Source: Gnetum montanum (lineage: Eukaryota > Plantae > Gnetophyta). Taken from it: a stretch of 63,664 nt of DNA. The stretch is from contig MNCI01001817.1 of the NCBI GenBank assembly GCA_015680685.1, positions 1,083,532 to 1,147,195 of the forward strand, written 5' to 3'. Position 1 is the first letter of the stretch, and each line of letters begins with the position of its first letter. Both the position numbers and the translations under genes were made by a program. The notes below the pieces were generated by a model. The model saw only the letters and a list, made by a program, of their open reading frames with translations. It made no database searches and was not told where the DNA came from. Below are positions 1-26,210 of this stretch, piece by piece.

Positions 1-1400
1 GAGGGCTATGCTGGAAAAACAAATCCACGGCGCCCTGAACGGTCTTGTCGATCAGACAAGGACTTACTAATCAGTAAACTGATGAATATCTCGTGGAACA
101 ATCCGATTCGAGGAATCGCAAAATGAGGGGAAAATGATGTAGACAAATTGTAACGATGATAACACTAAACACGATAAGAAGAGGCTAACACAAGAGAAAC
201 ACGTAGTTTCAAGATCTACGCTTTGACTTGAAAGATGTATATTTTATATGCCTTGTTACACTGGGGAGACCTCGATTACTGGATGTAAAGAAAGCACAAA
301 ACAACAAGGAAACTGTCCAAACGGAAGTCCGGTCTACCTCGTGGGCTAAAGCTGGGATGCAAGGAAGGTCAAGCTCTAACATCTATCAATCAACTGTTTC
401 TGACCAATAGAGCCTGCGAATCGTGCAAGATGATCCCATGATCTTGGATCTGCTTCTTTCACCTTAGGTGGTTTCTGTTTAGGACGGCCAGTGGTTGTTG
501 ATGGAGAAAATTGTGTCTTCCCCAAAGAACGATTACTCTTGTTGCCGATGCTCATGCGAACAACGCTCTGTCTCTGCTGTAAGGTGATACTGTCAACAAT
601 TTCCAAAATGCTACTCTCTGTATCTCTGCTCAAAAGTGATAAGTGCTCCAATGCTCAGAAAATGCCTTTGCTTCTTTGACTTGCCAACCCCTGTATCTTT
701 GTCAACTGGGGTATTTATAGGCTGCGACGCTCTGTGGAAAAGGCACAACCTTGATGACGTGTGTCCCGAATGTTTCAGGTACTGTTGGTTTGACCATTTT
801 TGTGTCAGATTTCATGACTACGCACAATANNNNNNNNNNNNNNNNNNNNNNNNNNNNNNNNNNNNNNNNNNNNNNNNNNNNNNNNNNNNNNNNNNNNNNN
901 NNNNNNNNNNNNNNNNNNNNNNNNNNNNNNNNNNNNNNNNNNNNNNNNNNNNNNNNNNNNNNNNNNNNNNNNNNNNNNNNNNNNNNNNNNNNNNNNNNNN
1001 NNNNNNNNNNNNNNNNNNNNNNNNNNNNNNNNNNNNNNNNNNNNNNNNNNNNNNNNNNNNNNNNNNNNNNNNNNNNNNNNNNNNNNNNNNNNNNNNNNNN
1101 NNNNNNNNNNNNNNNNNNNNNNNNNNNNNNNNNNNNNNNNNNNNNNNNNNNNNNNNNNNNNNNNNNNNNNNNNNNNNNNNNNNNNNNNNNNNNNNNNNNN
1201 NNNNNNNNNNNNNNNNNNNNNNNNNNNNNNNNNNNNNNNNNNNNNNNNNNNNNNNNNNNNNNNNNNNNNNNNNNNNNNNNNNNNNNNNNNNNNNNNNNGT
1301 GTTGCTCTATCTTATTCTCCCATCTGGAATTCTGACATGCGCCCTTGCCTGAATTGCGGATCTTTGCCTGAGGCCGACTCACAATTTTCATGGTGTTTCA
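1..1400 (-). repeat. 3' LTR of element 1 (contains N gap 830-1298; probably starts ~78 bp left of window)
   Basis: Matches 15645-17122; ends ...TGGTGTTTCA (TG start on minus strand), next to the PPT. Confidence 0.93.
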
Positions 1401-1416: not shown

Positions 1417-2574
1417 GATGGTTGGAGGGCTTGCCCGAAAGACGTCGACAAAGAATATGAAACACCGGATTGGTAAAAGCAAGAACAACGTCCATCCATG
1501 GCTACTCAAGCGTTTCCCTACCAATATGGAAGAACAAAGCTGGAGGGAATGGGAGATAGAATGACATAGTAGGAAACAGGTTCGGGGAAGACGTAAAGTA
1601 AGTCAAGAGGGTAGGAGTATGGAGTACGCTTACTGAATGCATAAAAACGTACGTACATTTATGTCAACAGGAATTCTTTCAGACGAGCGTAGCGCATCAG
1701 CCTGAGATCTCTCTGTCACCGATTATAGCAGGAATGCTTGCAAAAGGAGCACAGCGCATCACTTCTGTGATATCTCTGCTAGTGTGAGTGCAAAAAATGG
1801 ATGCTTGCGTATGTAGCTTTGCGTGCGGGAAGCAGATGGTAGGGATGAAACGAGATAAGAGCTAAGGGTGGGATTATGAGAGGTATAGGCATGCAGATCT
1901 AGGTGGTCGGGCAAACCTGAGCAGCCATTTCGAGACGCTGTTGTTCTTCACCGCTCAGGTGAACGCATCTTTGAACGACATCCTCGAAACAAGTAACCTG
2001 CAACCATAGAAGAAAAAACAGTGGACACCATTGCTCATGCGAATAAGAGGCGAGGTTGTCGAAACGAGCGCCGTTTGATGCGAGAAGGAGCGATTGGGCC
2101 ATGAAGAAGGGGCTGGAGCATGAGGGCGGAGCCTCCAATCCTCACGATTGGCCCAGCACATCTTCGCCAAAAGGCATGAGACACAGTGCAGCTAACTGGT
2201 CGTACAGGGAACCAGCTAGATGAATTTGCGAAGCCGGCGTCCGATAACGATGATCGGCAGGGGTTGCTGAGGTCGCTGTCGTTGAGGATTGCGTCGGGGC
2301 TCCAGCTGGTGAGACTAAACTCTCAGAGGTACCACTGTTGCAGTGGGTGCAGCAGCAGCATCTCCGAGGGATCAGTAAGATGCCTCTTAGCTTATCTGAG
2401 GAATCAGTAGGATGTCGATGAGGTGGCGACGCTGGGACTGTCCCAGTATCCCACCTCGTTTGTCGTGCAGCTGTACAGAGATGATCATGCTCGCTTGATT
2501 TATATGGCAGTAGTCTATGAGTCCTAGTTTTAAGTCCTGGTAGACTATCATTGCTAATTTTAAGTCTTAGCAGC

Positions 2575-3020
2575 CCATGGTCCCAGTTTAAAGTTCGGGC
2601 AGACCGAGAAATGCTAGTTTTACGTCGTAGCGGACGGTGGCATGTCTGATTTATGGTCTCAGTAGACCATGTTGTGGATGTCAGTTTCGTGTCATGACCC
2701 AAGGACAGAGCTACGTTGGTTTTACGTCTCAGCAGACGGCTACTTACCTGTGCTAGTTTAGCGTCGTGGCGGACGTGTGCAAAAGATGCCAGTTTTTCAT
2801 CTTGGCGGACCTGTACAACATTGCCAGTTTTACATCGTAGCGGACGGTTACAACATGCCAGTTTAGCGTCATAGCAGACGAATATTGCCAGTTTAGCGTC
2901 ATGGCGGACGCGTGCAAGGAATGCCAGTTTTACGTCGTAGCAGATGGTGGTTGCCAGTTTAGCGTCGTAGCGGACGTTCAGTGCCAGTTTAGCATCGTGG
3001 TGGACGAGTATTGCCATACC
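2575..3020. repeat. Degenerate 33-40 bp tandem repeat in the 3' UTR of element 1
   Basis: About a dozen units with core GCCAGTTT(T/A)(A/G)CGTCGT(A/G)GCGGACG; generates the spurious repetitive ORF 2142..3032. Confidence 0.9.
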
Positions 3021-3043: not shown

Positions 3044-3937
3044 CTAAATGTAATACCGCTTCAAATACAGATGATTTACAGGATTTGGTAATTCATTGTC
3101 GTTGACGTCTGCTAACTTGAATGCTCCGTTGCTGTATATGTCAACCGCCAAGAAAGGGCCTTCCCAGTTTGCAGAGAACTTGCCTACTGGTTCACGTACA
3201 GCCTTGAGAACTAGACCTCCTTTCTTGATCGGGCACTGTTGAAGGTTGTGGCGATGTTTCTGTCTCTATTTGTCTTGATACCTTTCAATCATGTCAAGAG
3301 CCTATATCCGTTTTTCTTCTACTAAATCCAGATCCACGATTCGAGACTCGGTATGTTGAGCCTCATTTATAACCATGGAGAGGACCATTCTCAGAGAAGG
3401 AATTTGCAACTTGAGAGGCAACACTGATTCAGACCCGTAAACCAGGCTATAGGGCGTACTACCCGTAGCCGTCATACACGCAGTACGATACGCCCATAGC
3501 ACATAGAGGATCCGTTCGTGCCACCGCCTTTTGTTGTTGTCGAGCATTTTCTTGAGCAGATTGATGATCACTTTGTTCGTTGCTTCAACTTGACCATTCG
3601 CTTGCGGGTAATAGGGGGAGGAAAAAGATTGTCTAATGCCCAGGTTATCACAGAAGGATTTGGTTTCTGTGCTACTAAACTGTGGCCCATTGTCGGTCAC
3701 GATAGTCATCGGGAGACCAAATCTGGTTACTATATTGTCCAGGATAAAATGGCAAATCTGCTGAGATGTGATCTTCCACAGGGGAATAGCCTCTACCCAC
3801 TTTGTAAAATACTCAGTAGCGGTAATAATGAAGCTATGACCTGCGGAAGATTTCGGCGTGACGGGGCCTATGATGTCTAGTCCCCATCGCTGAAATGGCC
3901 ATGTTATCTGCGTTGTATGTAATTCTGTAGGTGACAC
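3044..3937 (-). pseudogene. pol: Integrase core and C-terminus of element 1 (N-terminus in gap)
   Basis: WPFQRWGLDIIGP, TEYFTKWVEA, IVTDNGPQF, YYPQANGQVEATNK; continues past a TAG at 3302 to KFSANWEGPF. Confidence 0.93.
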
Positions 3938-4381
3938 GTGTATGAGATTTGCGTGACGCTGACACGTGTCACANNNNNNNNNNNNNNNNNNNNNNNNNNN
4001 NNNNNNNNNNNNNNNNNNNNNNNNNNNNNNNNNNNNNNNNNNNNNNNNNNNNNNNNNNNNNNNNNNNNNNNNNNNNNNNNNNNNNNNNNNNNNNNNNNNN
4101 NNNNNNNNNNNNNNNNNNNNNNNNNNNNNNNNNNNNNNNNNNNNNNNNNNNNNNNNNNNNNNNNNNNNNNNNNNNNNNNNNNNNNNNNNNNNNNNNNNNN
4201 NNNNNNNNNNNNNNNNNNNNNNNNNNNNNNNNNNNNNNNNNNNNNNNNNNNNNNNNNNNNNNNNNNNNNNNNNNNNNNNNNNNNNNNNNNNNNNNNNNNN
4301 NNNNNNNNNNNNNNNNNNNNNNNNNNNNNNNNNNNNNNNNNNNNNNNNNNNNNNNNNNNNNNNNNNNNNNNNNNNNNNNNN

Positions 4382-4788
4382 CTCAGAAGATCTTTAGCTT
4401 TATCGCAGTAGGGCTGAAAATGTACAGCCTTGCAGGCGTAGACTCCTGTGATCTAATTTATGACAAGCATCGAATCGCCCCTAATCGCCAAGTGTCGAAC
4501 ATTGAGTTCGCTGGCAGTTATTAATCCCCTGAGGAGCCCCTCGTACTCTACCATATTGTTCGTACAGGGGAAGGTCAAGCGATAAGCGGGGAGACACAGG
4601 TCCTTAGGCGATATCGTAATGACCGTGGAAACACTACCACCTCTAGCGGTTGAAGCTCCATCGAAATACAATGTTGCTTCAGGGCCTGTCAATACAGGGC
4701 TTAAACTATGTACATGCTCGTCAGGGAACTCTGGCTCTATAGTTTCCTGATTGTTCATCGGTGAAGTTATTAACTGGTCAGCTATCGC
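4382..4788 (-). pseudogene. pol: Archaeal-type RNase H (aRH) of element 1
   Basis: LYFDGAS...TNNMVEYEGLLRGL...IRGDSMLVIN between RH and INT, the Ogre/Retand arrangement. Confidence 0.9.
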
Positions 4789-6429
4789 CTAGCCTTTCAT
4801 AGATGATTGGCCAATATAGTGCAGATCGAATTTCGCCGTGATAGCCTTCCAGTAAGCTATTTTACTACTCTCGTATAAGTTGTGCGTAATGGCCCTAAGA
4901 ATGTTGTTTTTACAGATGATGTTGACCTTGCTACGGAAAAGATAATGCCTACACTTTTTAAGTGTAAAAACTAATGCTAGGCAATTACGCTCTACGTCGT
5001 TGTACCTCGTTTCGTACGCACATAGAGCATGACTCAAGTAGTAGATGGGCACTTTCGACCCATCATCCCTCCTTTGACAAAGTAATGCGGCTAACGCTAC
5101 GTCCGAAGTTGCGAGGTAAATGTAAAATGGCAAGTCCCTTTGTGGTGGGAAAACCATCGGTAAATGTTGCAGTTCTTGTTTTAAGCTGTCAAACGCACAT
5201 TGGCAATCATCGATCCATTCGAAATTAACCCCTTTTTTCAGCAAGTGTTGCATAGGGTGTAGCTTGTTAGTTAACCTCGAGATGAACCGGCGTATAAATT
5301 GTAAACGTCCCTGTAACCCACGTAATTGCTTGAGGTCTGTAGGAGGCGTTAATTCGACAATGGCTTTGACCTTATCAGGGTCAACTTGTATGCCGGTTTT
5401 CGACACCACAAACCCTAGCATGCGTCCGATTTTGACTCCAAATATGCATTTCTTTGGGTTAAGCCGGAGCTCGTATTTGAAGCATCTTTTAAGGACTAAC
5501 TCCAGGTCACTTGAATGATCCTCAGACTTTAAAGACTTAACAGCTATGTCGTCTACGTAATCATTCAACCTTCCTAGGAGGTAATCGCTGAAGATGTATG
5601 TCATGACTCGTTGATATGTTGCTCCGGCGTTCTTTAGAAAAAAAGGCATCATAGTGTAACAAAAGGTGCCCCAGGGTGTCATGAACGTTATTGTCAATTG
5701 ATGTTCTAGGTTGATTCGAATCTGATTATAGCCTGAAAAACCATCCATGAAGGACAGAAGCGCATGCCCAGCTGTCGTATCGACTAGCTGGTCGATACTC
5801 GGTAGTGGGAAGTTATCCTTGATCGTGGCCTTATTCAAAGCCTGGAAGTCTATGAAAATGCGTATGCTTCTGGTCTTCTTTGGGACAACTACAATGTTAG
5901 ACACCCAATCTGAGTAGTCGACTGCGCGAATGAAACCAGGCTGATACAGTTTAGTGATTTCATCATGCACGGCTAGCACGATCTCTAGCTTGATTTTGCG
6001 TGCCTTTTGCCTAACTGCTTTGATCTGCAGATCTAAGATAATGTTATGCTGGATTAACCTGGGATCTAGTCCAGGCATATCCTCGTATGACCATGCAAAG
6101 ACAGTAATGTTGTCTTGCAGGACCTGTTTTATAGCATCGTGTGTTTTCTGGTCTAGTAAAGAGCTGGCTTTAAGTGTTTTGGCTTCACCCTTATGCGTAA
6201 TGATAGAAACCTCACTGAGGGGGTCTTCGGTTATGTCCCCAGCCTCCAGGTCTAGCATACAAGCCGACTGTTCTGGCCATTCTGGGTACATCTCCGAAGC
6301 GGCTATGGTTACGTCTTCTTAATAGGAGCTAGCGTCTACTAGCGTGGAGTCAAATTGCCTAATTACCTTCCCGTATGGGCCTGTCAAAGTTAGGGGTGCT
6401 GAAAATGTTGCGTCCATTTGCCGTCTGCT
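4789..6429 (-). pseudogene. pol: Reverse transcriptase and RNase H of element 1
   Basis: FAWSYEDMPGLD, LSFMDGFSGYNQI, LKNAGATYQR, YVDD, LRLNPKKC, YLATSD, ETRYNDVE; frame extends upstream to a candidate splice acceptor at 6430. Confidence 0.95.
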
Positions 6430-6683
6430 CTGCAAAACCACCAAGTGTGTGAATGATTAGGAGAAAGGTGATGTGATGTCGTTGAACGTGGAAGGCTAAC
6501 TGAATTTTGAATATTGTAAACAAGCTGTAATCAATGCAACCCGATTACGAGGTGATAAGATGTGGTAGTTTAACATCATTTCGGACAGTGGTGCATGCGA
6601 TATCAGCTGCATTAATATCTTGATTTTCGAGTTTCGTTTTAGGAAAGTCCCGCTGAAATTGGATATCAAGTCGGTGATCCTCA

Positions 6684-6692
6684 CATATAAGT
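6684..6692 (+). promoter_or_regulatory. Candidate TATA box of the antisense cargo gene
   Basis: CATATAAG about 155 bp upstream of ATG 6841. Confidence 0.35.
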
Positions 6693-6840
6693 AAGTAGTT
6701 TTTGATGAGGACAGGTTGTTGGCTATTGTGAATTCGAATTCGTAGCTGTTGCTGAGAGAAGGAAGAGCAGAGGACTAGAGTGTGTGATTTTGCGAAGATT
6801 TGCAAGTGTTAAACTGTGGAAAAATTCTGAAATTGTTGCA

Positions 6841-9800
6841 ATGGCACCAAAAATCAAAAGGAAGAATGCAAAACTGGCCAAAATCGATGAGGTGCAAGAA
6901 AATTTGGAGCGCGTTTCGCAGGCGGTGGTCGATGTTCGTGACCCTACGCCTTTGAACCGGTAGGTCATTCTTTACAGGCTTACGTTTGTTTTAATGTCTA
7001 CTTTTCGTGGTATCTTTTGCGTGAATGTGGATTTCAAATTGTGGACCTCAGGTTAATGTGAGGGTTTGATGGGGTTGCGTCTACCGCCGTTGTCAGGGAC
7101 AAACCTTGCGTTATTGCAAGGGTTTGGGCGATTTCAACCTGGATAACTAGGTGTAGTTTATAAGTTTTCTGTATTAGTCATGCAAATGTAAATGTAGGTG
7201 TTAATGTATGTATTGGGTTTTCTGTACAGCGTTACGCTAAAGCCTGTTCTGATTGTTTTGGATATTGTCGGGGTTTTGTGTTGTGTAAACCCCATCGTCC
7301 CCAATGTCCCTCCCCCGCACACACGGTTGCAAGGGAAGGTCATATGGTTTCGATGGGGTGCGCTGGAGTTTCTGCAGTTCTTGCTACGCAACTATAGCAT
7401 CATTGTGTGGTCTGATTTGTCTGGCGACATCGCCGGTGCCCTTTTAGAGCACCTGCTGGTGGGTTCTGCACAAGGGATTCTGGCCTTTTTGACAGAAGGG
7501 GCCATCGATACGGGTCGTCCCGAGGATCGAGAACTTAGCGCCCGGGGCTTAAGGAGCTTAAACTGGATCTGAGAAATGGCTCAGTTCAGTTGTTATCATG
7601 CATATAACATGATGTTCGTGGCTCGCCATGTCTTGACCTATTTCCAGAACCCACAAGGCACGGTGTACTACGCAGGCAGGTAAGCAAATTTTATCAACTT
7701 TCTATTTTTTGTTGTCGTTATATGTTTGTTATCAATGTGAAATGTAAGAGAAGCCTAGGTGCAAAATGTAAGATAAGCCTACGTTGTATGGTACAGGTTT
7801 TTTATTCATGACAACAGGTTAGTCAGAAATGGAGATGCGTTATCATGGGCCGAAACGACAATAATGGCATTCACCTCAACTAGCAACATGCGCGTTGGTG
7901 TTATTGGGCAGATTGGCTTTGACATGCGTGAGTACCCCACCTGCTATGCTGGGGCTTTTGAGAATTGCCAGAGACTCGGGTGGCTGCACGATGACTGGAC
8001 CTGAGATCCACCCCTTACCTTTGAGGATGTGCAGAGGAACCTTCCACCATTTCCTTTGCCATTTGGACCTGGTGAGGCTGTTATATTGCGTAATATAGTT
8101 GTGAATTGTGGACATTGCGTAATAGTGTTTTGGTTTGACTTGTGTTTCACGCTGTTCAGTTAGGGAATCCCGGGAGATTACCCTTACGATTTCCGGCCGT
8201 GAGGCGAACACTGTACTTTTCTGCTACGGCGACATCAAGGACGCACAGCGCTGGCTCGGCCACTCGGCGGCCCCAGTCATGGTGACCACCAAGATCCGAG
8301 TAGCAGGACTAATGCATCTATTTTTAGCTGCGACTCCTGATGTCCCCGCTAGTGAAATGCTAACCCTGGTCAACTCCTTCAACGAAAAGGCAGAGCGTTT
8401 TTGCACACGTGTACATAACGTACACGTAAGCTTTAAAATTGACGCTCAGCTCTTTGCGGACCTATTCAGCATCCCCTCGGATGGCCTTCCTGTAAGTGAG
8501 AAGGCGAAGAGGAGCCTTGACTTCCAGGATTGGCTGAAGGAGCGGGTAAGGGTCCCAAAGGAGACTAAAGGGTTTCCTTGCAAAAAATTTCAGATGGGCG
8601 TTGCCAAGACACTTTATCCCCTTTTCTGGGCCCGGACTTTCCCCAAAACTCTCTCGCAAGGGAAGTTCCTTTCTGTAGAACAGACCCATATTATGCGAGA
8701 GGTTCTAGAGGAGGGGACCCAGTTCAATTGGGCAAGCTACTTTGCTAAGGGACTGCGCAATGAGATGATCAAGCTTCACAAGAAGCTTGAGTCCCGTTTC
8801 AACGTGCATTATGCCTTCTTCATAGCTTGCCTTCGGTGGTTTGCTGAGTTTCTGGTCATCCAAAGGAATGGGTTCTGGGTGCAGCAAGATCGAGACCAGT
8901 TGTCCAGACCTTGGATTGCCCACATCCTCAACACTACCCATGGGCAGGATCCGTCGGAAGGGATCGGGGAGTCATTGTCTATAATGACCAAGGGTTTGGC
9001 GGTGCCCCAAGTGCAAGGTCTCAACAGCATAGGCGGGATAATGCCTACTTACACCGGCGATGCCTCGCGAGGGAAACGCCTGGCGGAAGAAATTGTAGAA
9101 CCTGCAGCTTAGCGTAAAAGGCTCCGTATAGCTGAGGCCCCTGGGAGTGACGCAGGCCAAGCTGTGGCGGTCAAAGTTCAGCGGAGTAAGCCTCCGCCTG
9201 GTAAGCATGAAGGAATTGTATTACGCAATATTTTTTTTGGATAGTGTGGAATGATATGCTAAGGTGTTGTGATATGACCAATGAGAATTATAGAGGAACT
9301 GACCCCTGAAACAGGGGCAGTAGTATTACATCGTGGGGAGGGGGCCTCAATTTTGGAAGAAGAGGCCCCAGCTGTTAGCATGAGCCATGCACAGGCTCTG
9401 GTGCGTGAGGAGGCCCCAGCTGCTAGCGGGAGCCGTGCATAGGACCGGGTACATGAAGAGGCCCTGGCTACTGGAACCAGTGACGCACAAACTCAAGTGC
9501 CCGAAGAGGAAAAGGAGGTGGAAGATGTTGGCGAAGTTTCCACTGTCACTGGTAGAGGTAATGTGTGTGTTAGCACATTTGCAGGATTCTGTAAATAGAT
9601 GAAGTTTCTAACTGGATTACGCTACAGGAGAAGAGGACATATCCACGTCTGTCGCTGTGAGCAAAGCATGGAGAGACTTCCCTGACAAATTCGCCTTCAT
9701 GGAAGGTGTTGTCAGTGACATGATCGAGCGCCTAGAGCACGTCGAACCTGGAGCTGGTACGTTATGGTTGTAGTAGGTTTGTGATATTACATAGTGGTAA

Positions 9801-10987
9801 TGTGTCTTCAATATTTGATGGTTGTTTCTGTTAGGAGCTTGCCTCCGATGGGATCCCACGGAGCCCATTGATCTGGACACAGTGGAGCCACCATATGATG
9901 AAGCAACCGTGCCACGTCACATTTATGAGGAACTGCGTAAATGTGTGTTACGCTCGACACGCTCCTTATGGGAAAGTAGGGGCGTAAATGAAAATCTATG
10001 GAAAAGGTTGTAGAGGTCAGAGCAGAGGGTTGAGTCTCTGACCAAAGAGGTCAGAGACTTAAGATCACGGTGCGACTTCCTACAGGCATGAGTGACAAGG
10101 GATGAAGACTGGCGTACCGCTGTTGTCGATTACTCCCGGTATTGAACCACCATCAAAAATAGCGTACAGACCAGTCGGGCGTTGGTCGAGCAGCGGATGT
10201 AGATAGAACTCCTAGTCCAGAAAAGCCAAGACTGGAGGGATTATTGTGCAAGCGTTCAAGAATGAGGGCAAAAGGAAAAGGACCACAAACATTTGTATAA
10301 GCGAGAAAGCATCACTTATTGGAAACTTTATCGCGATTCCACCGTCAGGGCCCAATCCTTGGAAGTCTTCCTGGACGTCATCAGAGCTTTCAAGGCCTTC
10401 AAGAGGTTCGAGGAGTAGGTGACTGTAAGTGCGTCCCCGGAAAGGGCGATGACTCTCCCTAGGGATCAGGCTATAATCCCTACTTTCTTCCCGGACCCAC
10501 CTTGCTGGAGCAGCATGGAAAAAGAGAAAGTGAAGGCCGGAGCTGCCTTGGGAGAGGATGTATGGCTAGATCTAACGGAGGAAGAGATTATGAAGCACCT
10601 GTGGGCTGGCCTGGACAAGCTTCCCTTTGCTGCGAAAGCAGGGCTGTCGCAAGTAAGTTTATGCATGAATTAGTTTGCATTTTCTAATTATGATGTTAAG
10701 CCTTGTGTAGCTAATGTGCTTACTATACTTAGGTACCAACTGAAGATAGGGAAGGCGAACAAGCTGAGGGTCCAGTAGAGGAAGTAGTAGAAGTAGAGGA
10801 AGAGGAAGAACGCAATGATGAAGAGTGCCCCCCAGTGGAGCCGGTGCAGGAACAAGGACCCCGTGAAGTGGAAATTCTTCGTAAAAGAATAATTCGGAGG
10901 GATGACGACCCACTAGAGGACGATCCACTAGGGCTGGATCTGGATTTAAGAGATACAGGTGACAGCGGCAGTAGAGGAAATGCGTAA
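6841..10987 (+). pseudogene. Antisense 8-exon cargo gene of element 1 (~1116 aa): NLS, FCP1/NIF-like degenerate phosphatase, plant-transposon/PMD-like domain, coiled coil, acidic tail
   Basis: Exons 6841-6959, 7230-7679, 7797-8071, 8160-9200, 9294-9557, 9628-9756, 9835-10652, 10733-10987; all GT-AG, phases 2,2,1,1,1,1,0 consistent; 3351 nt, no frameshift; internal stops are only TAG/TGA; homologous copy at 18940-25565. The exon 5 acceptor is the least certain boundary. Confidence 0.85.
7230..7679 (+). pseudogene. Exon 2: FCP1/SCP/NIF-family HAD phosphatase-like domain
   Basis: KPVLIVLDIVGVL (cf. KLLVLDL(D/N)xxL), WFRWGALEFLQFLLRNYSIIVWS (cf. RPxxxEFL...F/Y.V.xWS), LNWI*...YHAYNMMFV...FQNPQGT (cf. 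L..LW...Y...NTLLLDD....NP..T). Confidence 0.7.
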
Positions 10988-11177
10988 TTGTGGTTTATGC
11001 ATAGTTTTATTGATGGTAAAGTGAAGTATTGTTTTAGGAATGATTGAAAAGATGCGTTATAAGACCTGGTGGATGTGTCAAATGTCAATTATTTTGTCTT
11101 TTTTGGCTTTTATGCTTTTACAGTGTGAACATAATTATTAAAGATTTCTCCTAAGTTATGATGATAGAATGTAATGA

Positions 11178-11305
11178 CTAGTTTAAGGCCGTTGTGGGCC
11201 AGATGCGTAATGTAGAGAAAGCATAAATGATGATAATGCATAATTCTGGGTAACTAGTTTAAGGCCGTTGCGGGCCATGGCTAGTTTAAGGCCGTTGCGG
11301 GCCAA
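11178..11305. repeat. Three copies of CTAGTTTAAGGCCGTTG(C/T)GGGCC downstream of the cargo gene
   Basis: Copies near 11178, 11254 and 11281. Confidence 0.85.
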
Positions 11306-11527
11306 CTACGTAATACAGCAAGCGTACTGGTACAAAATTTTGCGTAATTATGCTAAAGTGATCAGGAAATGTGAATATCACGCGTACAAAAAAAGATAAC
11401 AGTGTGAAGATTAATGACAAGCGTAAGAACCGAAAACGAAAGTAGCGTGAAAATGCATGAAATAAAATTGCTAAGTAATAAACATGATAACTCGCTAAGA
11501 CATGATAATGTACACAAGGACCATCAT

Positions 11528-12590
11528 TCAACCATTGATACGCAATTGTCTCTTGATGGCCTTTACATTGAGCGTTGCGTAAGGGCGAGGAGACTTATGG
11601 TTTGACTCCTCTACGCTGCCATCCGGAAATGGCAGGTCGGCCCAAGCTAGATCGTCATTATTGCTGTCAGCCTGTTGAGGGGTTTGGAGATAGGTTTGAT
11701 CATCAGTCGTTTCTATCTCTAAACCCCGTTCTTCTTCAATGTTATTGACGGTCGTGGGGGTGATTTTGTCACCGCGTATCACAACTTCCCCTCTGGCATA
11801 AGGAAGGTGTATCTCGTGGTGTATCGGTGATGAAACCGTCCTCAGCTGGGCAAACCATGACCTCCCCAAGATCAGGTTGAACCCCGGCATCTCCTCGATG
11901 ACTAAGAAAGTGGCCTCTCTTGGGAATTGATCCCCTGCCACAAACTCAATACGCACCGTCCCCTNNNNNNNNNNNNNNNNNNNNNNNNNNNNNNNNNNNN
12001 NNNNNNNNNNNNNNNNNNNNNNNNNNNNNNNNNNNNNNNNNNNNNNNNNNNNNNNNNNNNNNNNNNNNNNNNNNNNNNNNNNNNNNNNNNTCTACGCGCA
12101 CTCTCCGGATCCGGTATTGACCGACCCGGATGGTGATGAACATAGGTTCAGTTGTGACCTGACCTTTCTCAGGATCGTCTTTGATAGACTCATCGTGGAA
12201 GGTCAGCGAGGTAGGCGTAGGTTGCTCAGCTTCAGAAGGAAACATGATAGCATGTATCGCTTCCTCCTCCGCTGGCAAGCTTTCATCCACTGATATGGAT
12301 GTGAGCATGCAAACCATAACATCACGGTGCTCTTGAGACGTCATAAGCAGGTCATAAAGGCTCAGGGTTGTGTTTTTTTGTTTGAGAGCCTGTTTAACTT
12401 GCGTAAATGCGTCGAGGAGGTCCTTCTCTCGGCTAGTTTGTTTATCCCCCTTGTCCTCTTCCATTCGGCCCAGGAGACGAATCTCCCAAGGTAGAGTGGT
12501 GTTAGTCGGGGGGCTGTTCTTTTTCTTGCCAAGAGAAGGCAGTTGTGTTTTCGCACCTTTATCCTGCCCCTGAGGTACAGGCGAAGGCAC
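11528..12590 (-). pseudogene. pol: Aspartic protease region of element 1 (active site in N gap), ending in a stop
   Basis: PMFITIRVGQYRIRRVRV then FLVIEEMPGFNLILGRSWF...VSSPIHHEIHLP...VVIRGD. Confidence 0.85.
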
Positions 12591-12649
12591 AGAGGCCAGG
12601 GGCCTAGGCTTAGGGAAGCCAAGCGTAGAATGGTCTTTCGTTGCATTAA

Positions 12650-15320
12650 CTAATGTGTCCTTTCCCTTTCGCTTGGGAGGTGACAGTTGACGCTTCTGGT
12701 TGGAGGTCTACCCCTACGTAAGAGGAGTAGCTTGTGGTCTTGGTGCCCTAATAATGAAGGGCACCTTAGGCATGGGCACGGACGAGGCCGCGGCTTGACT
12801 GTCGCTGTGTGACTGAGGGTGTATCCAAGAAGGTGCCCGTATAATGAAGGGTGGTCTCGAGACCCCACTGGCTTTCGATGAAATGGTTGGCCCCCTTTGT
12901 GAGCTGGCAGGGACACGCAAAACAAAAGGTTGTTTTGGTGGTTCCCTCCTCCCACTGTCCATACTTACCACAGTGATTGTATAAGGATCATTGTTTGCGT
13001 TCAACGGGTCCTTATATACGTGCAATGTTTGGTTTTCGGGACGCGTCGGGTTGCTGCTGTCTAACTTGAGTGAACCATCGTCCAACATACGTTGAATCTC
13101 GTCTTTCAACGCCCAACAGTAATCCGTATCATGACCACACAGCTGGTGGTAGTCACAAAAACAGTCTAGCCTGAAAGACCTCGGAACTGGTGGTTCATTA
13201 GGTAAGGCTAAAGAAGGGTTCTTCAGCAGTTCACAATGACATCTGTGATGCTTCAGAGCTTCCTCGGACACCTTCTTAGGTTGAATGTGCCCTACCCCTA
13301 ACAGTTGTTTCAGCAGTTCGGAATGCTTTACAGGTAAAGCCGTATACTTTGAGCGATCCTTACGCTCAAAGTTTGGCTTAGGCTAGGGGGGTCCTTCAAG
13401 GGCAGTTGTGTCTTGGCTGGTGCTGGCACCAGCCGTGGTTTCAGGAGGCACCGTGGGTGCCTTCTTGTTCTTAGTCTTTGTACCCTCAGTCATCGCAACT
13501 ACTGTCATTGTCGCTGCTTTACCTTTATCTTTGCTCTTGTTATGTGCATTCCTGTAGGCGACATACGTCGGGTCCTTGCTAGCCTTCGCAGCATCTTGGA
13601 TACTTCTAGTTTGAGCAAAGGCCTGATGCAAAGAGTTGGGGGAAAGATAATACAGCTTCGACTTAATAAAGTCGTTGACTACTCCCTTGAATATAGCGAG
13701 CAGATGTGAGTCTGCGATTGGCTCGCGGATCTCATTCAAGGTAGCATTTTAGCGCTGTATGAACTTTTGGATGGGTTCGAGCGGGTCTTGCTTCACCCCC
13801 ATGAGCTGATCCAATGTGACTTCCGGTTTCAAGTTGTATTTGAAGCGGGTCACAAATTGGGTCAACAGCTCTTCCAAGGTTGAGATGGAAGAGTGTGGGA
13901 GGGCTCGGTACCAATCCAAAGCTTTCCCTATTAGAGACATTGCAAAGACTCGGATGATGGTGTGTGGCCACTGTTGCAACAACAAGAACTTAGATCTAAA
14001 CGTGACCAAGTGAGTGTTGGGATCTCCCTCCGCATTGTACTTGGTAAAATGAGGCAGAGACATCCCTGGCGGTAATGACAGCATAGGGACCGCTAGACTA
14101 ATCAGATCATCCTGGTAAAAGTCCATGATCTGAATAGTATCAGAACCAGCGGCTTTGAGGCATCAAACCTCCTCGGTGAGAGTCTGTATAAGCTGGAAGG
14201 CTTGGTCCAGACCTATTGATGGAGGTGTCTGTGCAGAAGGCATAGGAGGTTGGACCGGGAGGGCAGCGCTAGGGAACAGAAACGATGGGAGAGGTTAACT
14301 GGCTACTTGTGGGGCAGGGATCCCTACAGGTGGAGGGGCGTGTGAAGACCACCACCCACTGGTTTGCAAAGCGGGGTTAGCCGCCACCTGTTGCGTAAGA
14401 TAAGGATAGATATACTACGGGACCACCTGTGGAGCTTGTATTGCGGGTGCAACGGAAGGTTGCACACCATACAGCGCGGATTGGTTGTATTGCGCTATAG
14501 GGTTGGGGCACTGACTTGCAGCAGGTTGTTGGATGTATGTTTGTGGCTGAACAGCTGCGATGATCTGTTGATTTGGAGGGGGCGGGGATGGTAAAATCTG
14601 TGCTAGGTGAGTTGTTGATATGGTGTGAGGTCATATCTGAGGGATGAAATGGGGCGCGGTGGTCGCCGGGACCACTGGTGGAATGCTGAGAACTCGTGAC
14701 GATGCAACTGCCCCCATATTATTGTGGGGCACTTGCACTAGTAGCCTAGATGGCTGCACAATGGCTTGTGGGATGATGGGGACATGCATCTATGTAGTTA
14801 TGGCCGAGTCAAGAGGAGCGGCCTCTTCGTTGAAAGGAAACAGGGGATTTACGTACGTGTTGGGGCTCAGGGTATGGAACGAATGTTCTGACTGGGCTGC
14901 CAATTCATCCTCTTCCTCATCCCCACTCTGGGGTTCCCCCACAGCTTATGCAGCTTGGCCCTTGGCCATGACCAACTGTGTAATGAGTTCATGTTGGTGT
15001 TCGGTCAAGGGAATGATGTCGTAAGTTGTTGGCTTGAAATCATGGCCCCCTCGGTGGACCACCTCAAAGTTTCGTTTCGCTTCGACTTTGGCTCGGCTAA
15101 GAGCTAGCTTCGCCTGGATCTTAACACATATAAAGTTGTATTCTTTAGGGGTTATGACCATGAAGATAGGCTCTTTTCCCTGAAGTCTCAATGATCGGCG
15201 CAATGGCCCTTGAGATCCTGTTGCGCCAGGAGCTGGTCTGGCAACCGCGATAGGGTTCACAGATGTGGCACCCAAATCGGCAGGGACCATGGTGGTTGTG
15301 GTCGTGTACAAGGAATCCAT
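12650..15320 (-). pseudogene. gag: gag of element 1 (fragmented)
   Basis: PHFTKYNAEGDPNTHL, SLIGKALDWY, VKQDPLEPIQKFIQR, Tat-type knuckle CDYHQLCGHDTDYCWALKDEIQ. Confidence 0.9.
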
Positions 15321-15542: not shown

Positions 15543-15560
15543 GCCCTCCTTCTAGCGCTA
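15543..15560 (-). other. Primer binding site, tRNA-Asn
   Basis: Minus strand TAGCGCTAGAAGGAGGGC, one mismatch to the complement of the plant tRNA-Asn(GTT) 3' end GCCCTCCTTCTAGCGCCA. Confidence 0.85.
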
Positions 15561-15566: not shown

Positions 15567-17122
15567 TATAACGACAGAAAACGTTGGTAGCTGGAAAATA
15601 CCAAACAAAATCCCATGTACACAGTTTTGACCATGGATCCGTGCGAGGGCTATGCTGGAAAAACAAATCCGTGGCACCCTGAACGGTCTTGTCGATCAGA
15701 CAAGGACTTACTAATCAATAAACTGATGAATATCTCGTGGAACGATCTGATTTGAGGAATCGCAAAATGAGGGGAAAACGACGTAGACAAATTGTAACGA
15801 TGATAACACTAAACACGATAAGAAGAGGGTAACACAAGAGAAACACGTAGTTTCAACATCTACACTTTGACTTGAAAGATGTATATTTTATATGCCTCGT
15901 TACACTAGGGAGACCCCGGTTACTGGATGTAAAGCAAACACAAAACAACAACGAAACTGTCCAAATGGAAGTCCGGTCTACCTCGTGGGCTAAAGCTGGG
16001 ATGCAAGGAAGGTCAAGCTCTGACATCTATCGATCAACTGTTTCTGACCAATAGAGCCTGTGAACCGTGCAAGATGATCCCACGATCTTGGATATGCTTC
16101 TTTCTCCTTAGGTGGTTTCTGTTTAGGACGGCCAGTGGTTGCTGATGGAGAAAATTATGTCTTCCCCAAAGAACGATTACTCTTGTTGCCGATGCTCATG
16201 CGAACAACGCTCTATCTCTGCTGTAAGGTGATACTGTCAACAATTGCCAAAATGCTTCTCTCTATATCTCTGCTCAAAAGTGATAAGTGCTCCAATGCTC
16301 AGAAAATTCCTTTGCTTCTTTGACTTGCCAACCCCTGTATCTTTGTCAACTGGGGTATTTATAGGCTGCGATGCTCTGTGGAAAAGGCGCAACCCTGATG
16401 ACGTGTGTCCCGAATGTTTCGGGTACTGTTGGTTTGACCATTTTTGTGTCAGATTTCATGACTACGCACAATACGCTTATTTGCGTATTGTGCATGTAAA
16501 GAATAAATGCACGTCGGGCGTGTTTCAACTATCTTTGGGTTATATTACGCTCATTCACGCTACATTGCGTGCACGAGCGTAACATAACATGGAAACAGTG
16601 GATTCAAGCTGTTTTACGCTCGCTTACGCGGCCGCGCGTAATGAAGCGTAAAACAATGTTTAGCTTGGCGGTGCAATACGCTGTGATACACTACATTGCG
16701 TGATGAGCGTATCATGAGCAATCGCACTTTCTTAGACTTTACCTTTGACTGTTTTGGAACTTATTACGCTGCCGTGCGTAACAGAGCGTAAACCTGGCCT
16801 TGAACAAAAGACTTAGCAAAATATACAAGAAGTCGCATATTACGCTGCTCAAGCCTCTCCCTATGCCAAAGTAACTAGCCTTCTGATGTCGGGCTATGTT
16901 TAAACAGAATCATGCTAAGCGCCATTATGCTACATCACGTGGTATAGCGTAAACAGAGAAAACATGGTAAGATTAGGAATCTACACAAGAATTTGAAGAC
17001 TTGATGCTATGTGCCTCTTGGTATTGATCTATCTTATTCTCCCATCTGGAATTCTGGCATGCGCCCTTGCCTGAATTGCGGATCTTTGCCTAAGGCCGAC
17101 TCACAATTTTCATGGTGTTTCA
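15567..17122 (-). repeat. 5' LTR of element 1 (~1.56 kb)
   Basis: Repeat of 1-1400; minus-strand TATA CTATAAATA at 16356-16364; left terminus next to the PBS, with TG decayed to TA. Confidence 0.9.
16460..16952. promoter_or_regulatory. U3 array of palindromic TACGC/GCGTA modules
   Basis: 16 TACGC/GCGTA pentamers counted in ~490 bp, arranged as TTACGC..ACGC..GCGT..GCGTAA modules. Confidence 0.7.
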
Positions 17123-18325: not shown

Positions 18326-21300
18326 ATTTTCGGTATGGGTTTCTACCTACCTCATTAGACAATTTTCATCAATTTCAACAGCTAGTTTCTTGTCTTGGGC
18401 ATAAGGTTTCATGACATGGATGGGTAGTTTTGAGATGGTTTTTGGTAGTAGCTTGGTTTTGCAATTCATTTCAAGGATTCTAGATGCTTGAAACCCAACG
18501 TAATCACCCTAGGAAACTAAAAACCCAAGTGTGTTAGGATTTCCATTGGATTTCTTCCTAGCCACCTAGTGGGACCCACCTTGAATTTGAATTTTTTCAT
18601 GCATTAGTTTCCCACTAACCGAGCATAGTCCTAATTACTAATTGTGATCATTGAGTTCAATGGAACTTAGGTGAGTGTTTTGGAAAACCAGGGTTTTCCA
18701 AGGGGGTGCATAAGTATGGGAGTGATTTTCAAGAAACAACTCTATCCTAGCTTGTCCCACTTTCTTTTCTTACTACTCTCAAACTTTATCATCTTAGATT
18801 AGAGCTTTGAATCTATCCTAGATTCTACCACTTTCATTCCCAACATAGTTAAGTTTTTCTACCCTAAGAGGCTAGTGTAGTTGTTGTAGAAGGCTATAGA
18901 AGCTCCAAAATTTTAGTTGTTCCTACATTGATTGCCACCATGTTGAGGAGATAAGCTTCCATCACTAAGAACCTTACCCTAGAGGAAGTTGACACTACTA
19001 CCCTAGGCCTCTCTAGTCTTCCATGGCTAGTTATTACTAAGAGCTCCAACACCATGATGCCTAGGTACAAAAATTCTAGTATTTTCTTGCAAAATTTCAC
19101 TAGAATCCTAAGCATTTTTGGTCATGATGGTTTGTGCATTTGTTTTTTTTTTTAATTTTTTAAAAATCCTATATTAGATTTAGGTTATTTCTATGGGTTT
19201 TGATGTTGCTTTGGTTGTGGGATTGGTCTATGTTGAGTTAAAAAATTATTTCTATTGTTTTTAGTCATTTTCATGTGTTTTGGAGCAAAAAGGAAATACC
19301 ACTTTTGTATTTTTTATATTTTAAAAGGTTTAGAGTTTTTAGTTATTGTGGCCTTCTAGTTATCATACTATATTTAGTGGTCAAATGGATTTTTGAACCA
19401 CCTAATTCTAACCTACGATTAATTCTCTATGAATTTTTCTATAAGATAGTGCAAAGTGGATTTTTAGTTTTGGCCATTTTTTACATGGTACTTTGGTAAT
19501 TTTTCATGTTTGAATGGAAGAATTCTTGGTCAAGTGTGAGTTTTGGCCATGAAAACTACAAACCTCTCTGTCTATACAGGTAGCATTGGTGCTAGTGTTA
19601 TGTTTGATTTTTATGTTTAAAGGTTCATGAAGCTATTTACATGTTGTATTTTTAGTTCTAAATAGTCATTTTGAATTTCTAGAAAATTTTAACTAGCCTA
19701 CCTAGAGATTTTACTATGGCTAATTTCACTATTAACTAGGGTGCTTAGCAAAATTTTGCAAAATCCAAGTTGGTGTTTTGACTATTGTAGTTGGTACAAG
19801 CTATTTTTCATGTTTTTTTTGTTTCTACATAAAAATTTTCACAATGTTTATGCATATCTTAGCATGAAAATTACAAACAATTGTCAGTAAGTCACTTGGT
19901 TGTACATGGTGTTTAGTTAAAAGTTGGTCCTAGCTTTGGTTTTGGTTTTAAGTGTTGCAACTATAGTTTGGTTGTTGTGGAATGGCAACATTAGCATTAA
20001 AGTTATTGTAATTTTGGCTATTTAAAGTTTGATTATATTTAGTTATGTTTACTTATGGTTGAAAATATTGTTATTATTGTGTGTAGGGCCTTCCTCAAGC
20101 CCATCTTGGTGGTGATAGAGTTGGTGGGATTGCTATGTTGCATCCACACCCTAGGGTGAGTGTGGCTACTTATGGTTTTGGCCAAGGGCACAAGAGTTAT
20201 TGGCCTTCCTACTATAGAACTTTAGTGTGATGATATGGTCACACTTATCAACCCACATAATTGTTGTCATTGTTGAGACCTTGCTACCTTGATCTTCTAG
20301 CTTGATCATCAAGTTCATAGAAGATGATCCTGAGACATGCATAGAGGGCAAGGTGCTTAATAACAATCGTACAAGGGGAACTTGTAAGTTGTCTAAGATT
20401 TGGGACATGCCAGAGTTCAACTTCTATAATGCTAACAACATTTTGCTAGTTTGACACTAGGCCAACACGTTGTTTTAAAACCCTTCTAATACAGTCTACC
20501 ATGTGGAAAGGTAAGCATGGTTTTGAGTTTTTATCTTTCGATGCTTTAATTATTGGTTTTACTAGGCTATTTCATTTTAACATTTCTTCTTGTGTACTTG
20601 TAAGTACAAGGTGGATGACAAAGGGTTAGTTAAGCATGACTAGCTCCTACCCTTAGCCTAAACATTGGAGGTTTTTGCCAGAAGCCTCATAGTAAGGCTT
20701 ATGATGGTGAAGCAACATAGAGGAGACCTAAGTAGATATACCACATGTTACTCCAAAGCCTACCAATTTTGTATAGCTAATGGGACAATGCATGGCTAGT
20801 GGGATAAGTCAAATATTTTCCTCATACCCATTGAAGGCTCCTTCAATACTCTTCAAGTAGGAAAGATAAGAGTTATATTTTTGTTTTTTTTTCATGTCAA
20901 TGTTTTTTCATGGTTCTATGGTTGTAGGTTACTTAGGCTTTAAGTATCTAAATAGTTTTACTCATAATGTTTGGCTATAAGTTTTGTTTTAATGTTGATT
21001 ATACTTGTTATATTTTGGTTTTACGCATCTATGCCTAAGCAAATTGGCCTCTTGTTGTATTGTAGATGCTAGCACCTCCTCCCCTGTCATACTTGTTATT
21101 TTAGGATGCTCCAAGGAGACTTTGATTTTCAAGTAAGAGGAGGTGGATTTAGTGTGGTAGTGGTTGACTAGTAGGGTGCCCAAACATATCCAAGTAAAAT
21201 TTCCTAATTTAGGTTTACTTGATCTATTCATGACCCCTAGCTCCACTGTTCCTGTCTTTGAGATGATGAACATCATTGACTCCTTTGACCAAGGAGTGAA

Positions 21301-23043
21301 GAAGTTCATCATCTAGATTCATGATGTGCCTATTACCTTGGCCATTAATAAATCCATCTTTAGTGATCTTTTTGGCATTACTCATGAAGGATTATAGGTT
21401 TTCACTAAGGCAGGTAAAGATGTAGAGCACCAAAAGGAGGTGAAGGAATGGCTAGGCACTCACCGTGATTACAAGGGGTTTTCTCTTAGCTAATTTAAGG
21501 TTGAAGAGGCTAGGGAGGCATAACCCTTATTCTACTCTAAGGGGTTCCCAAATCTACTATCTCAAGAAAATATCATGGGGATTGAGTAGGAATGAACCAT
21601 GAGGAAGCTCCATATAGAGGATGCTCAATTCAATTGGGTTGGTCACTTAGTTTTTGGGCTTCATGGTGAAATCCTCAAACTCCATGATAACCTCACAACA
21701 AAATGCCACATGCATTATGCATTCTTCACAACATATTTGAGGAGGTTCATGGAGTTCCTAGTGGTGAGGAAGGATGGAAAATGGATAAGCCAAGATCCAT
21801 TCTAACTTTTCAAGCCATGGGATAAACATTTTTATCCCACTATGTAGGCTCAGAACCAGCTAGAGGACATTGGGGAGTTACTATCTATTACCACTAAGGC
21901 ACTTAGTGATAGGTGTTGTGTTTCCCCTAATAGCACATGGATTGAGCCCCATGTTGTGCATGGAGATGTAGAGTGGACTAGGACATTATGGTCTAAAGCT
22001 GATGGTTCAGCTAAAGCCAAACTAAAGAGGCCCATGGTTGAGACAAAAGTAATAGTCATTGAGAAACCCTCTAAGAGGAGGTTCATGGTGAGACTTGGCC
22101 AAGTAGGTGACATGGTCATGGATATGGTTTAATTTATTTAGATTACTTTATCTTATTATGTTTTTTATTATTGGGTTATATTTTTATTGTGTTTTATGCA
22201 AGATATGCCAAGTCATACCATGTTTTGTCCTTGTTGTTATTGCAAGCAAACAACAAGAGTTAGCAGCTTAGATAGTAATAATGATGACTAGAGGAGGGGA
22301 TCCTATAATGCCATGAGGATGAAGGATTATCCAATGTCTCATTAGATGACCTTAAGACCATATTTGATCTTTCATAGCTAGGTGAACCCCCTATCATTGT
22401 CCTAGATGATCCTCTAGGTGCGCATGCCTTTGTTTCATATGTTTAAGTTATGTTGTTTTGTGATTAAGCTTGGTCTTAATAGTTTTTTGGTTGTTATGCT
22501 TACCTTAAACCATTGAACCTTAGCCTACTACCTCCACCACCACATTCTACATGAAGCCATGTATTGACATTCCTAATAAGAGGGAGTTCATGTGGGGGAT
22601 AGGAGAGGATATGATTGATCAATTACACTAGGTTGCTCCCAATATGGGTAAGTACTTAGTTGATATTTCACTTTATATTTTTTTTCTTTATGGATATATT
22701 GTTTTAGTTATTATTTTTTTTATCCTTTGGTCATTGGGTTACTTATCCTTTTTACTTATTTTTTGTTGTTTTTAGTGCCTAAGCGAATGGGATCCTAACT
22801 ACCCCCTTGAGATTGATGCTTTACCCAGCCTATCATCCAATGTAGAGAATGTACCATGAAACTTATATGAAAGTGTCACTACTTGTGCATTTTCATGTGC
22901 CAAAACTTTGTGGAAAATTCAACACTCCAATGAGTTCCTATGGGAATGTATTGTAGCATTAGAAAAAGAAAACAAGAGGCTAGTTGGGGCTAATAAGGAT
23001 CTCAAGGATGGTAAGGAATTTGTGGAGGTCCAAGTAGCTAATA

Positions 23044-24751: not shown

Positions 24752-25877
24752 TATGAACTCAGGGTTGAGGCTATTTTGGCTAAGATTTCTAGCTTTCTAG
24801 CTACCAAGATTTTTAGTTGCTACAAGTTGCTTATGAACCAAAGAGATCAATTGGGCACAGTACTAGAATGATATTCATGGAAAGGTTTCCCTTGCTTGGG
24901 AGGTTTCTGAATAGAAACTGCAAATGGACCTACTAACACGTAAGGCTAGGAAGTAGAGAGACTAATATGCCTAGGTTCTTGAGTGGGGCCACACACAAAA
25001 GGACCACAAGAAGAAGTATAAGGCTAAGTGTGAAGCTTACCTTAAGTGGTTGAAGTAGGAGTCCATTGAATGGTGCATGCTAGAGTTGCTCGTGAGGGGG
25101 ATTCAAAAGGAGGATGTCTTTAAACTCTTTAAAGGCACCTTAACCATGGTTGAATCCCCATCTCCTCAATTCTCTACTACTTCAAGAGAGATGACTACCA
25201 AGACATTTTTATAGGAACCATCGACATGGACATACATTGTTGATAGCAACACCTTGATAGGCATTAATCTTGGGGAGGCAGACTAGGCCCACATGATCGA
25301 GGAATTGATTCTCCATCATTTAAAGGTTGGTCTTGGGAATCTTCCACCAAAAGATGTTGCTCCCGAGCCACCCAAGTTTGCTTATTTCATTGGTTTTAGC
25401 ATATTTTAGTTTAATTTAATTTAATTTTATAGTTTGTGATTCAATTTTATACTTTGTTGATTATTAGTTAACTTATGTTTTGTTGTGGTATAGGTACTAA
25501 TTAACACTGATAGCCCCAACAGAGAAGGTGGAAGTGCTCCTCAACCCCCTCTAACATCCTCTTAGTACCATCTATGATCTTTTTTCTATGGTTATTTGAT
25601 TGCTTTTAGTTGTTGACATTGTTGATGATGTATTAGCTAGTGTTAACCATTTGATTAGTTGATAGACAATTTATTATTTGGAATTTCATGGTTACTACAT
25701 TGTAGACATTGGATACTTATTATTTATAAATTTTAATTTGGTTCATATGTTTCTAAAACTTTAATGTTTCATATACGTTTAATGTTCTACATTTTGTTTA
25801 TGTCATAGGCTATGCTGATTAACTTATGAAAAATGACCATAATGTAAACTAGGTTGTAACAATTATAAGAGGTTTAC

Positions 25878-26210
25878 GAGTTTTAGGCCATGACAATCCA
25901 TATGGTGTTTTGGTAGTTTTAGGTCATGGTGAGCCCTATGATTTGCCAATTTTATGCCATGGTGAGCCATGCGATGTTTTAGGCAATGGCAAGGCATGCG
26001 ATGTTTTTCCAATTTTAGGCCATGGTGGGCCATGCGATGTTTTTCCAATTTTAGGCCATGGTGGGCCATATAGTATTTTGCTAGTTTTAGGCCATGGTAG
26101 GCCCTACAATTTTCCAATTTTAGGCCATGGAATGCTATGCAATGTTTTGTCAATTTTAGGCCATTGTGGACCATATAATGTTTGCCAGTTTTAGGCCATG
26201 ATGGGCTCTA
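25878..26210. repeat. 36 bp tandem repeat CCAATTTTAGGCCATGGTGGGCCATGCGATGTTTT
   Basis: About 10 units; same position relative to protease and cargo gene as the 11178-11305 repeat. Confidence 0.9.

Follow-up and report, generated by a model that had tools for sequence, protein, structure and literature searches.

A 5.1-kb span between protease and reverse transcriptase in an Ogre-type retrotransposon of Gnetum montanum: a probable sense-strand intron with a predicted antisense gene

How might a long terminal repeat (LTR) retrotransposon carry an intron-rich gene between its protease (PR) and its reverse transcriptase (RT) and still produce Pol? Retroelements lose introns that lie in the sense orientation and tolerate little added DNA inside gag-pol. 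The question is raised by a 63,664-nucleotide (nt) stretch of Gnetum montanum DNA (contig MNCI01001817.1, positions 1,083,532 to 1,147,195; this whole stretch is the window referred to below), in which our subject lies inside element 1, a minus-strand LTR retrotransposon of the Ogre type. Across Ogre elements the two open reading frames (ORFs) stand 274 bp apart on average, and the spacer acts as an intron that part of the transcripts lose by splicing (PMC6317226); the pea and Medicago elements have it between Gag-PR and RT and likewise remove it from only a subset of their transcripts (PMC4408406). These papers agree with what a preliminary description of the window had stated about Ogre splicing. 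From the sites and homologies described below, we consider it probable that the PR–RT span of element 1 is the Ogre gag-pro/pol intron, enlarged about 20-fold into a cargo bay and removed by a predicted splice from 11566 to 6430.

Splice sites at the two ends of the span

The preliminary description had placed a stop at the end of the protease frame, phase-0 splice sites on either side of the span and an RT frame restored by their joining, and in each of these details it was correct. The PR frame ends in a minus-strand TGA at 11530–11528. GTAAAG begins at 11566 directly after AAT, in phase 0 of the PR frame, whilst TTTTGCAG ends at 6430, with CTAAT at 6460–6456, and the first base of an RT-frame codon is 6429. 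Since both sites are in phase 0, splicing out the 5,137-nt span could keep the frame. The TAA within the branch motif is an in-frame stop which closes the RT frame upstream; RT is therefore unreachable by reading on, and requires either a splice or the ATG at 6417.

As a splice site the acceptor is strong and lies far beyond chance. It is the sole combination of TGCAG with a CTRAY branch point (18–40 nt upstream, no intervening AG) on both strands of the window. The search pattern was set after the site had been seen, and is that of the plant splice consensus. An acceptor in the needed slot and phase arose in 0 of 5000 shuffles, in 3 of 5000 when a looser branch was permitted and in 4.4% when any YAG was accepted.

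Copies of the family were compared as short contigs, from runs chosen by species label. For the acceptor region 2004 and 1769 DNA contigs were aligned, from two species labels, and 32 and 33 of the 301 places, respectively, vary at ≥15%. The acceptor AG and the branch AA vary at <15% in both runs; one varying place per run lies beyond those listed, and cannot be either of these. The expectation that the acceptor would be conserved across copies is thus upheld for its AG, which is invariant at this threshold, with variable neighbours at 6428, 6429, 6438, 6440, 6448 and 6451. DNA depth is similar on either side of the acceptor, which indicates that most copies retain the 3' end of the intron. 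Among the family variants just past the acceptor, codon positions show no significant skew (4 of 11 and 6 of 13 at third positions). As a separate observation on distribution, runs of four species labels hold 0.36–0.49 of the sequence words of 4800–12000 and those of two labels hold next to none; the element family is high-copy in at least two species labels.

At the other end of the span, the predicted donor matches U1 at six of nine positions, the best among 15 GT sites in 11800–11500. Its heptamer, AATGTAA, occurs once on the minus strand within element 1, at 11566, and was found in 1.5% of shuffles (0.6% in phase 0). The T content rises from 0.21 before the site to 0.46–0.50 from 40 nt after it. 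Joining the two sites would give a PR-to-RT linker of 212 codons; the range in those homologues that hold both motifs (63 of 120) is 91–552.

Relatives of element 1 were collected as 80 related loci, 58 of which hold both PR and RT. The PR-to-RT gap is 5624 nt in element 1 and 37–1470 nt in these 58, among which 17 have a long two-ORF gap. In 14 of the 17 a GTAA donor is followed by T-rich sequence, and in nine the heptamer AAT/GTAA stands at the predicted start of the intron. Five relatives with paired sites have predicted introns of 173–228 nt, and in these the distance from the acceptor to the start of the RT profile is 257–319 nt, compared with 315 nt in element 1. The donor of element 1 is weak, and appears homologous to the predicted donors of these relatives.

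A quick RT tree, with no named Ogre and with 3 of the 80 loci omitted, places element 1 in a clade (support 97) with all 16 two-ORF rows. Membership of element 1 in the Ogre clade seems likely. Two further observations concern the relatives. Locus L003 (1–8100) has an Ogre-like RT preceded by 8.1 kb with no PR match, short frames only and no cargo match, which may reflect a nested insertion or a second case of a long spacer; and sense-strand extra ORFs of the PMD/DUF7745 type occur in the two-ORF relatives L005, L008, L014, L015, L031 and L032.

The antisense gene and the elements that carry it

That the span houses a cargo gene had been claimed beforehand, and the gene turns out to be more elaborate than was claimed: a nine-exon model on the strand opposite to element 1, with introns of its own, and shared with a second element in the window (element 2). 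Its eight GT–AG introns are 76–138 nt long, with a GC content of 0.30–0.39 against 0.49–0.57 in the exons, and the exon phases chain through all nine exons into the frame with the fewest stops. The copy in element 1 is decayed, with ten premature TGA or TAG codons (11 stops counted in frame when the terminal one is included).

Exons 3, 5, 7 and 8 have homologues in element 2, at the same place and on the same strand. The donors of cargo introns 3 and 7 align between the elements, that of intron 3, GTAAGC, with the donor at 20511 of element 2. Exon 5 is 34% identical over 292 residues to 21035–21907 of element 2. Its identity by codon position between the two elements is 0.51/0.62/0.33, compared with 0.58/0.69/0.30 for gag, where protein-guided alignment inflates the first two values.

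What the gene encodes can be addressed in part. Exon 3 matches the NIF/FCP1-type HAD phosphatase profile PF03031 with an E value of 0.002 and 18.2 bits, under the cut-off of 21.8; at the position of the DxDxT motif it reads D-I-V, the second Asp being absent, and the homologue searches returned no relative of this exon. For exon 5 no Pfam match was found to an E value of 5, and no homologue among 937 candidates, viral contigs, metagenome contigs, the 80 related loci or the PDB. A single match to it among 1.84 billion representatives (E 2.6e-5) covered 46 residues of a repetitive protein and was rejected. A likeness of exon 5 to PMD, suggested by eye, gave an hhalign probability of 0.16, equal to that of the controls, with shallow profiles on both sides, and single-sequence structure prediction was uninformative (predicted local distance difference test score, pLDDT, 36). 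The cargo has no TRP28 or PMD match. Nor was it accepted as a nested DNA transposon: there are no terminal inverted repeats around the insert, and it is co-inherited in two elements. The basic N-terminus, the weak HAD/FCP1-type phosphatase match, the unfamiliar domain, the helical region and the acidic tail lead us to regard the product as most likely an element-encoded nuclear accessory protein.

We note in addition that the heptamer TTACGCA recurs in or near the cargo introns (8093, 8122, 9221, 9940, 10987, 11210, 11347 and 11582), and that 13 of its 15 occurrences in the window fall in element 1. This may reflect no more than CpG retained in a younger element.

Element 2 is a diverged relative, 35–48% identical to element 1 in protein. 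The preliminary description stated that the same GTAAAG stands at its equivalent position. The motif is indeed present at 26544, where the PR frame closes and T-rich sequence sets in; it is in phase 2, and in the DNA alignment the counterpart of 11566 is a GT at 26520, 24 nt away (score 77 versus 48). The motif ATGTAAAG occurs three times on the minus strand of the window, and 1.2% of shuffles reproduce it for the element 2 site. No RT of element 2 was found in the window, including the 2.6–2.9 kb before the element 1 LTR, and element 2 consequently cannot test the protease–RT join. No homologue of the acceptor was detected in element 2 either (alignment score 212, with shuffles up to 235). 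What element 2 supports is a donor at the end of PR, and not the join in its exact form. It is either a derivative without pol or was cut by the insertion of element 1.

The remaining features of element 1 bear on its classification. Its two LTRs are 95% identical (38 mismatches in 829 nt compared). There is a Retrotrans_gag match (E 2.8e-6), PR matches Ogre-like proteins, and the pol domains are recognized by the profiles RVT_1, RT_RNaseH, RVT_3 and rve. The nearest proteins to its RT are plant Ogre-like sequences (45–49% identity); no RT homologue was found in viral contigs. A second, archaeal-type RNase H (aRH), the mark of the Tat clade (Ty3/gypsy, OTA), is present as an RVT_3 match at 4456–4788 (E 4.9e-6), 37–41% identical to the aRH of homologues. 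The domain order on the minus strand is RT, RNase H (RH), aRH, rve, so that aRH lies between RH and integrase (IN), the arrangement by which the Ogre and Retand clades are recognized among Tat elements (PMC6317226). As in Ogre there are two separate ORFs, given the PR stop at 11528 and the closure of the RT frame at 6459; an N gap at 11965–12090 hides the continuity of gag and PR. The 5,137-nt spacer exceeds the short spacer of Ogre elements. The copy is decayed, with scattered stops, and the pol frame has three stops in 682 codons compared with 48–59 in the other frames.

The site resembling a primer-binding site (PBS) may match the 3' end of a tRNA of the Asn type rather than tRNA-Arg. A tRNA-Arg PBS is an Ogre feature. 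A profile built from nine PMD/DUF7745 sequences had no match anywhere in the window; an extra ORF of this type, 5' of gag, is reported for 57% of Ogre elements and is not universal among them. Of the antisense TRP28 ORF that Retand has between pol and the 3' LTR there is no sign, in that the scanned frames gave no Transposase_28 match and the plus-strand frames at 1420–3040 are closed.

Short tandem arrays after the PR stop (11185–11293) and the integrase stop (2532–2991) share TAAACT(A/G)G, and a related array follows the PR of element 2 at 25889–26197; packaging or protein-binding sites are possible roles. In the 3' region of element 1 there are also a second sense-strand acceptor-like site at about 1998 on the minus strand (pyrimidine tract, TGCAG/GT) and a 316-codon frame at 2142–3092 that is mostly repeat-derived. 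Coordinates are collected in Table 1.

Table 1. Positions in the window of the features of elements 1 and 2 and of the predicted cargo gene
Feature	Positions	Strand	Remark
Predicted sense-strand intron (cargo bay), 5,137 nt	6430..11566	-	From both sites and homology
Predicted 5' splice site AAT/GTAAAG, phase 0	11561..11566	-	Heptamer also in 9 of 17 two-ORF relatives
Predicted 3' splice site TTTTGCAG, phase 0	6430..6437	-	
Predicted branch point CTAAT	6456..6460	-	Branch A 27 nt before G of AG
In-frame ATG, 13 nt into RT exon	6415..6417	-	Rival Pol start
Predicted cargo gene, nine exons, about 1,140 codons	6841..10985	+	Antisense to element 1
Cargo exon 1	6841..6959	+	ATG; basic N-terminus
Cargo exon 2	7052..7150	+	Least certain exon; no homologue found in element 2
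Cargo exon 3	7230..7679	+	Weak NIF/FCP1-type HAD phosphatase match
Cargo exon 4	7818..8071	+	
Cargo exon 5	8160..9200	+	Domain of no known family
Cargo exon 6	9294..9551	+	48-nt repeats; alternative donor 6 nt later, phase kept
Cargo exon 7	9628..9756	+	Homologue and donor in element 2 at 22566-22648
Cargo exon 8	9835..10652	+	Helical, coiled-coil-like by eye; start homologous to element 2 22758-22946
Cargo exon 9	10733..10985	+	Acidic tail, stop
5' LTR of element 1	15570..17122	-	TG start at 17122; inner end approximate, placed from PBS-like site
PBS-like site of element 1	15544..15560	-	
Gag-protease region	11528..14300	-	Decayed; N gap 11965-12090; TGA at 11530-11528
Three-copy tandem repeat near intron 5' end	11174..11314	.	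TAAACT(A/G)G in common with post-integrase array
Pol (RT, RNase H, archaeal-type RNase H, integrase)	3045..6429	-	Decayed; N gap 3974-4381
Tandem repeat array after integrase	2532..3016	.	
3' LTR of element 1	1..1400	-	Extends past window start; purine tract precedes LTR
Element 2	20094..29143	-	Gag, PR, donor-like AT/GTAAAG at 26544, tandem repeats, homologous antisense cargo

Other repeats occupy the remainder of the window: a diverged direct-repeat pair (40780–46164) precedes a plus-strand RT at 46600, an LTR-like pair (52757–59448) surrounds decayed RT and integrase pieces at 55457–56871, and a Ty1/copia gag lies at the right end (62625–63662).

A proposed mechanism and its alternatives

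If the span is spliced as predicted, the LTR would yield a full-length RNA which, unspliced, would give a Gag-protease ending at 11528 and also serve as the packaged genome; the cargo would be inherited because the unspliced RNA is packaged. With a weak donor and a strong acceptor, a minority of the RNA might be spliced to encode Gag-protease-RT-RH-aRH-IN, and partial splicing would set the ratio of Gag to Pol, as in pea and Medicago Ogre. The cargo would be read off the other strand, from a promoter of its own between 6460 and 6840. Since the genomic RNA is antisense to the cargo, the eight cargo introns would be invisible to the spliceosome and survive reverse transcription. The intron would be the one internal place able to take 5 kb without lengthening or breaking the polyprotein. 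More speculatively, we suggest as a possibility that an old, high-copy, Ogre-like branch has made its regulated gag/pol intron into a heritable cargo bay for a spliceosomal nine-exon accessory gene, and that the product, of a new family and with a phosphatase-like N-terminal domain, acts on the element's own transcription, splicing or silencing. If true, the element would be passing an intron-rich gene faithfully through reverse transcription.

Several observations weigh against the predicted splice. Firstly, the U1 match of the donor is at chance level, with 35–53% of shuffles giving an equal phase-0 GT; within the span there are sense-strand GT sites with a better U1 match (8018 and 10500) and 11 weaker acceptor candidates. 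Secondly, for the 13 acceptor and branch bases to be conserved as seen has by itself a chance of about 22%, and the ATG at 6417 is likewise conserved (run X1). No intron-less contig is found among those listed, and the 12 listed of 143 include no loose end at 6430. Thirdly, 11 of the 14 relatives' donors are in phase 2 with the stop inside the site, and the element 2 GTAAAG follows that layout, whereas in element 1 the phase is 0 and the stop lies 12 codons on. The relatives' introns are themselves predictions, several of the loci are near-copies and no named Ogre is among them. Finally, element 1 sits on a long basal branch (0.93) in the RT tree.

To these must be added the RNA reads. A search for the junction, proposed as a check in the preliminary description, was made in four RNA runs mapped on 4400–17125 (26% or 2% of each run was read), and no 11567/6429 junction occurs among the 538, 200, 285 and 2385 reads mapped; the one joint listed is a repeat slip and not a splice. 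At the acceptor two further runs contributed 21 and 3 reads, and 10–12 reads of run X16 cross it unspliced. The reads are mostly <90% alike to the element 1 copy and lie on both strands. None of the eight cargo introns was seen spliced in them either, so that these reads have the appearance of unspliced RNA or of DNA from silent copies. They neither support nor refute splicing. The earlier proposal that an Ogre intron has grown into a cargo bay is accordingly retained with some reserve: the exceptional and conserved acceptor, the heptamer of the relatives and the RT clade speak for it, and the missing junction read and the phase of the element 2 site against it.

The alternative that survives best accepts the acceptor at 6430 and pairs it with another donor, in the leader or LTR (such as 15711 or 16742) or downstream of a promoter inside the span (6684, 6983). 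On this view translation of Pol as a separate protein would begin at the ATG at 6417, and the T-rich tract beyond 11528 would terminate the gag-protease RNA. This would accord with the position of that conserved ATG, 13 nt into the exon, with the weakness of the 11566 donor, with the candidate donors upstream, and with the head-to-head arrangement of cargo and pol, 420 nt apart; T-rich tracts converge at 11000–11500, as would two terminators. The first mates of run X15 also switch strand, being mostly plus at 5675–6524 and minus at 6525–8649, but this switch derives from few start piles (108 molecules at one place) in diverged copies. The heptamer of the relatives' donors, moreover, stands at the end of the PR frame in the right phase, and Pol made without Gag would need another route into the particle. 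We regard separate production of Pol as unlikely.

Less probable still is that the sites are relics of a short Ogre intron into which a gene or a piece of a DNA transposon was inserted, whereupon splicing failed and the elements became non-autonomous passengers using the Pol of others. There is no spliced read among the RNA reads, element 2 has the cargo and no pol in the window, and an intron-rich gene does look like captured host or DNA-transposon sequence. Against such a history, pol is complete, with few stops in its frame, the conserved acceptor comes close to a perfect site, the insert is not flanked by terminal inverted repeats, and the cargo occupies the same place in two elements of low protein identity and evolves like gag.

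Removal of the span in stages via internal sites, or from a phase-2 donor to the tandem CAG at 6425, would suit the phase-2 donors of the relatives and of element 2 (a CAG ending at 6425 would be in phase 2 and is absent from the listed variable sites, and a one-base slip private to the element 1 copy may lie between 11644 and 11566), but is improbable to a similar degree, because the first AG past the branch point is at 6430, the PR frame is open through the donor here and element 2 aligns in frame to the same region.

Relation to known elements

Splicing in Ogre and antisense extra ORFs in Tat elements are already known. With the Ogre elements of pea and Medicago, element 1 shares two ORFs, the position of aRH, a spacer with donor and acceptor, a weak donor and 3' tandem repeats (PMC6317226, PMC4408406). 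It differs in the spacer, which has a mean of 274 bp in Ogre and in element 1 holds a whole gene within 5,137 nt, and from its Ogre-like relatives in the phase of the predicted intron, 2 in the latter and 0 in element 1. Retand, Grande and RIRE2 (aORF-3R) resemble it in carrying a large antisense accessory gene within a Tat element, and gene23 of Grande has its own promoter (PMC7264820, PMC11963269). Those antisense genes lie between pol and the 3' LTR, are described as ORFs and mostly have TRP28; the element 1 cargo, by contrast, is placed between PR and RT, is predicted to contain eight introns and gives no match to TRP28 or PMD.

The orchid element Gypsy_Pa_2799 is Ogre-related and has a fixed extra enzyme-like domain, 2-ODD/AlkB; its Gag-Pol is one ORF without an intron, and the cargo is unrelated (PMC9289625). 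Engineered retrotransposition reporter cassettes also place an antisense gene in a retroelement, with the orientation of an intron deciding its loss (PMC12786077). The intron of the cassettes has the same orientation as the element and is lost, whereas the cargo introns of element 1 are antisense and would be kept, the cargo itself lying within a natural, predicted sense intron.

Extra ORFs of plant elements have been described before gag or after pol (PMC6317226, PMC7264820). Our literature search, with subscription papers and supplements outside it (REXdb tables may list long PR–RT spacers), brought up no description of a gene with several exons lying antisense between PR and RT. Pipelines that look on either side of the polyprotein for ORFs of 250 codons, the method given in PMC6317226, would miss such a cargo. 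What sets element 1 apart is the long, predicted PR/RT intron holding an antisense multi-exon gene, in an element that would otherwise work like Ogre. The arrangement makes several questions testable, namely the ratio of Gag to Pol in Ogre, the reason why unspliced RNA propagates and the roles of Tat accessory proteins. If the interpretation is true, a 4.1-kb gene with eight introns inside the PR/RT intron would represent a third place for extra genes, beside those before gag and after pol, and a general way for complex genes to pass through an RNA intermediate.

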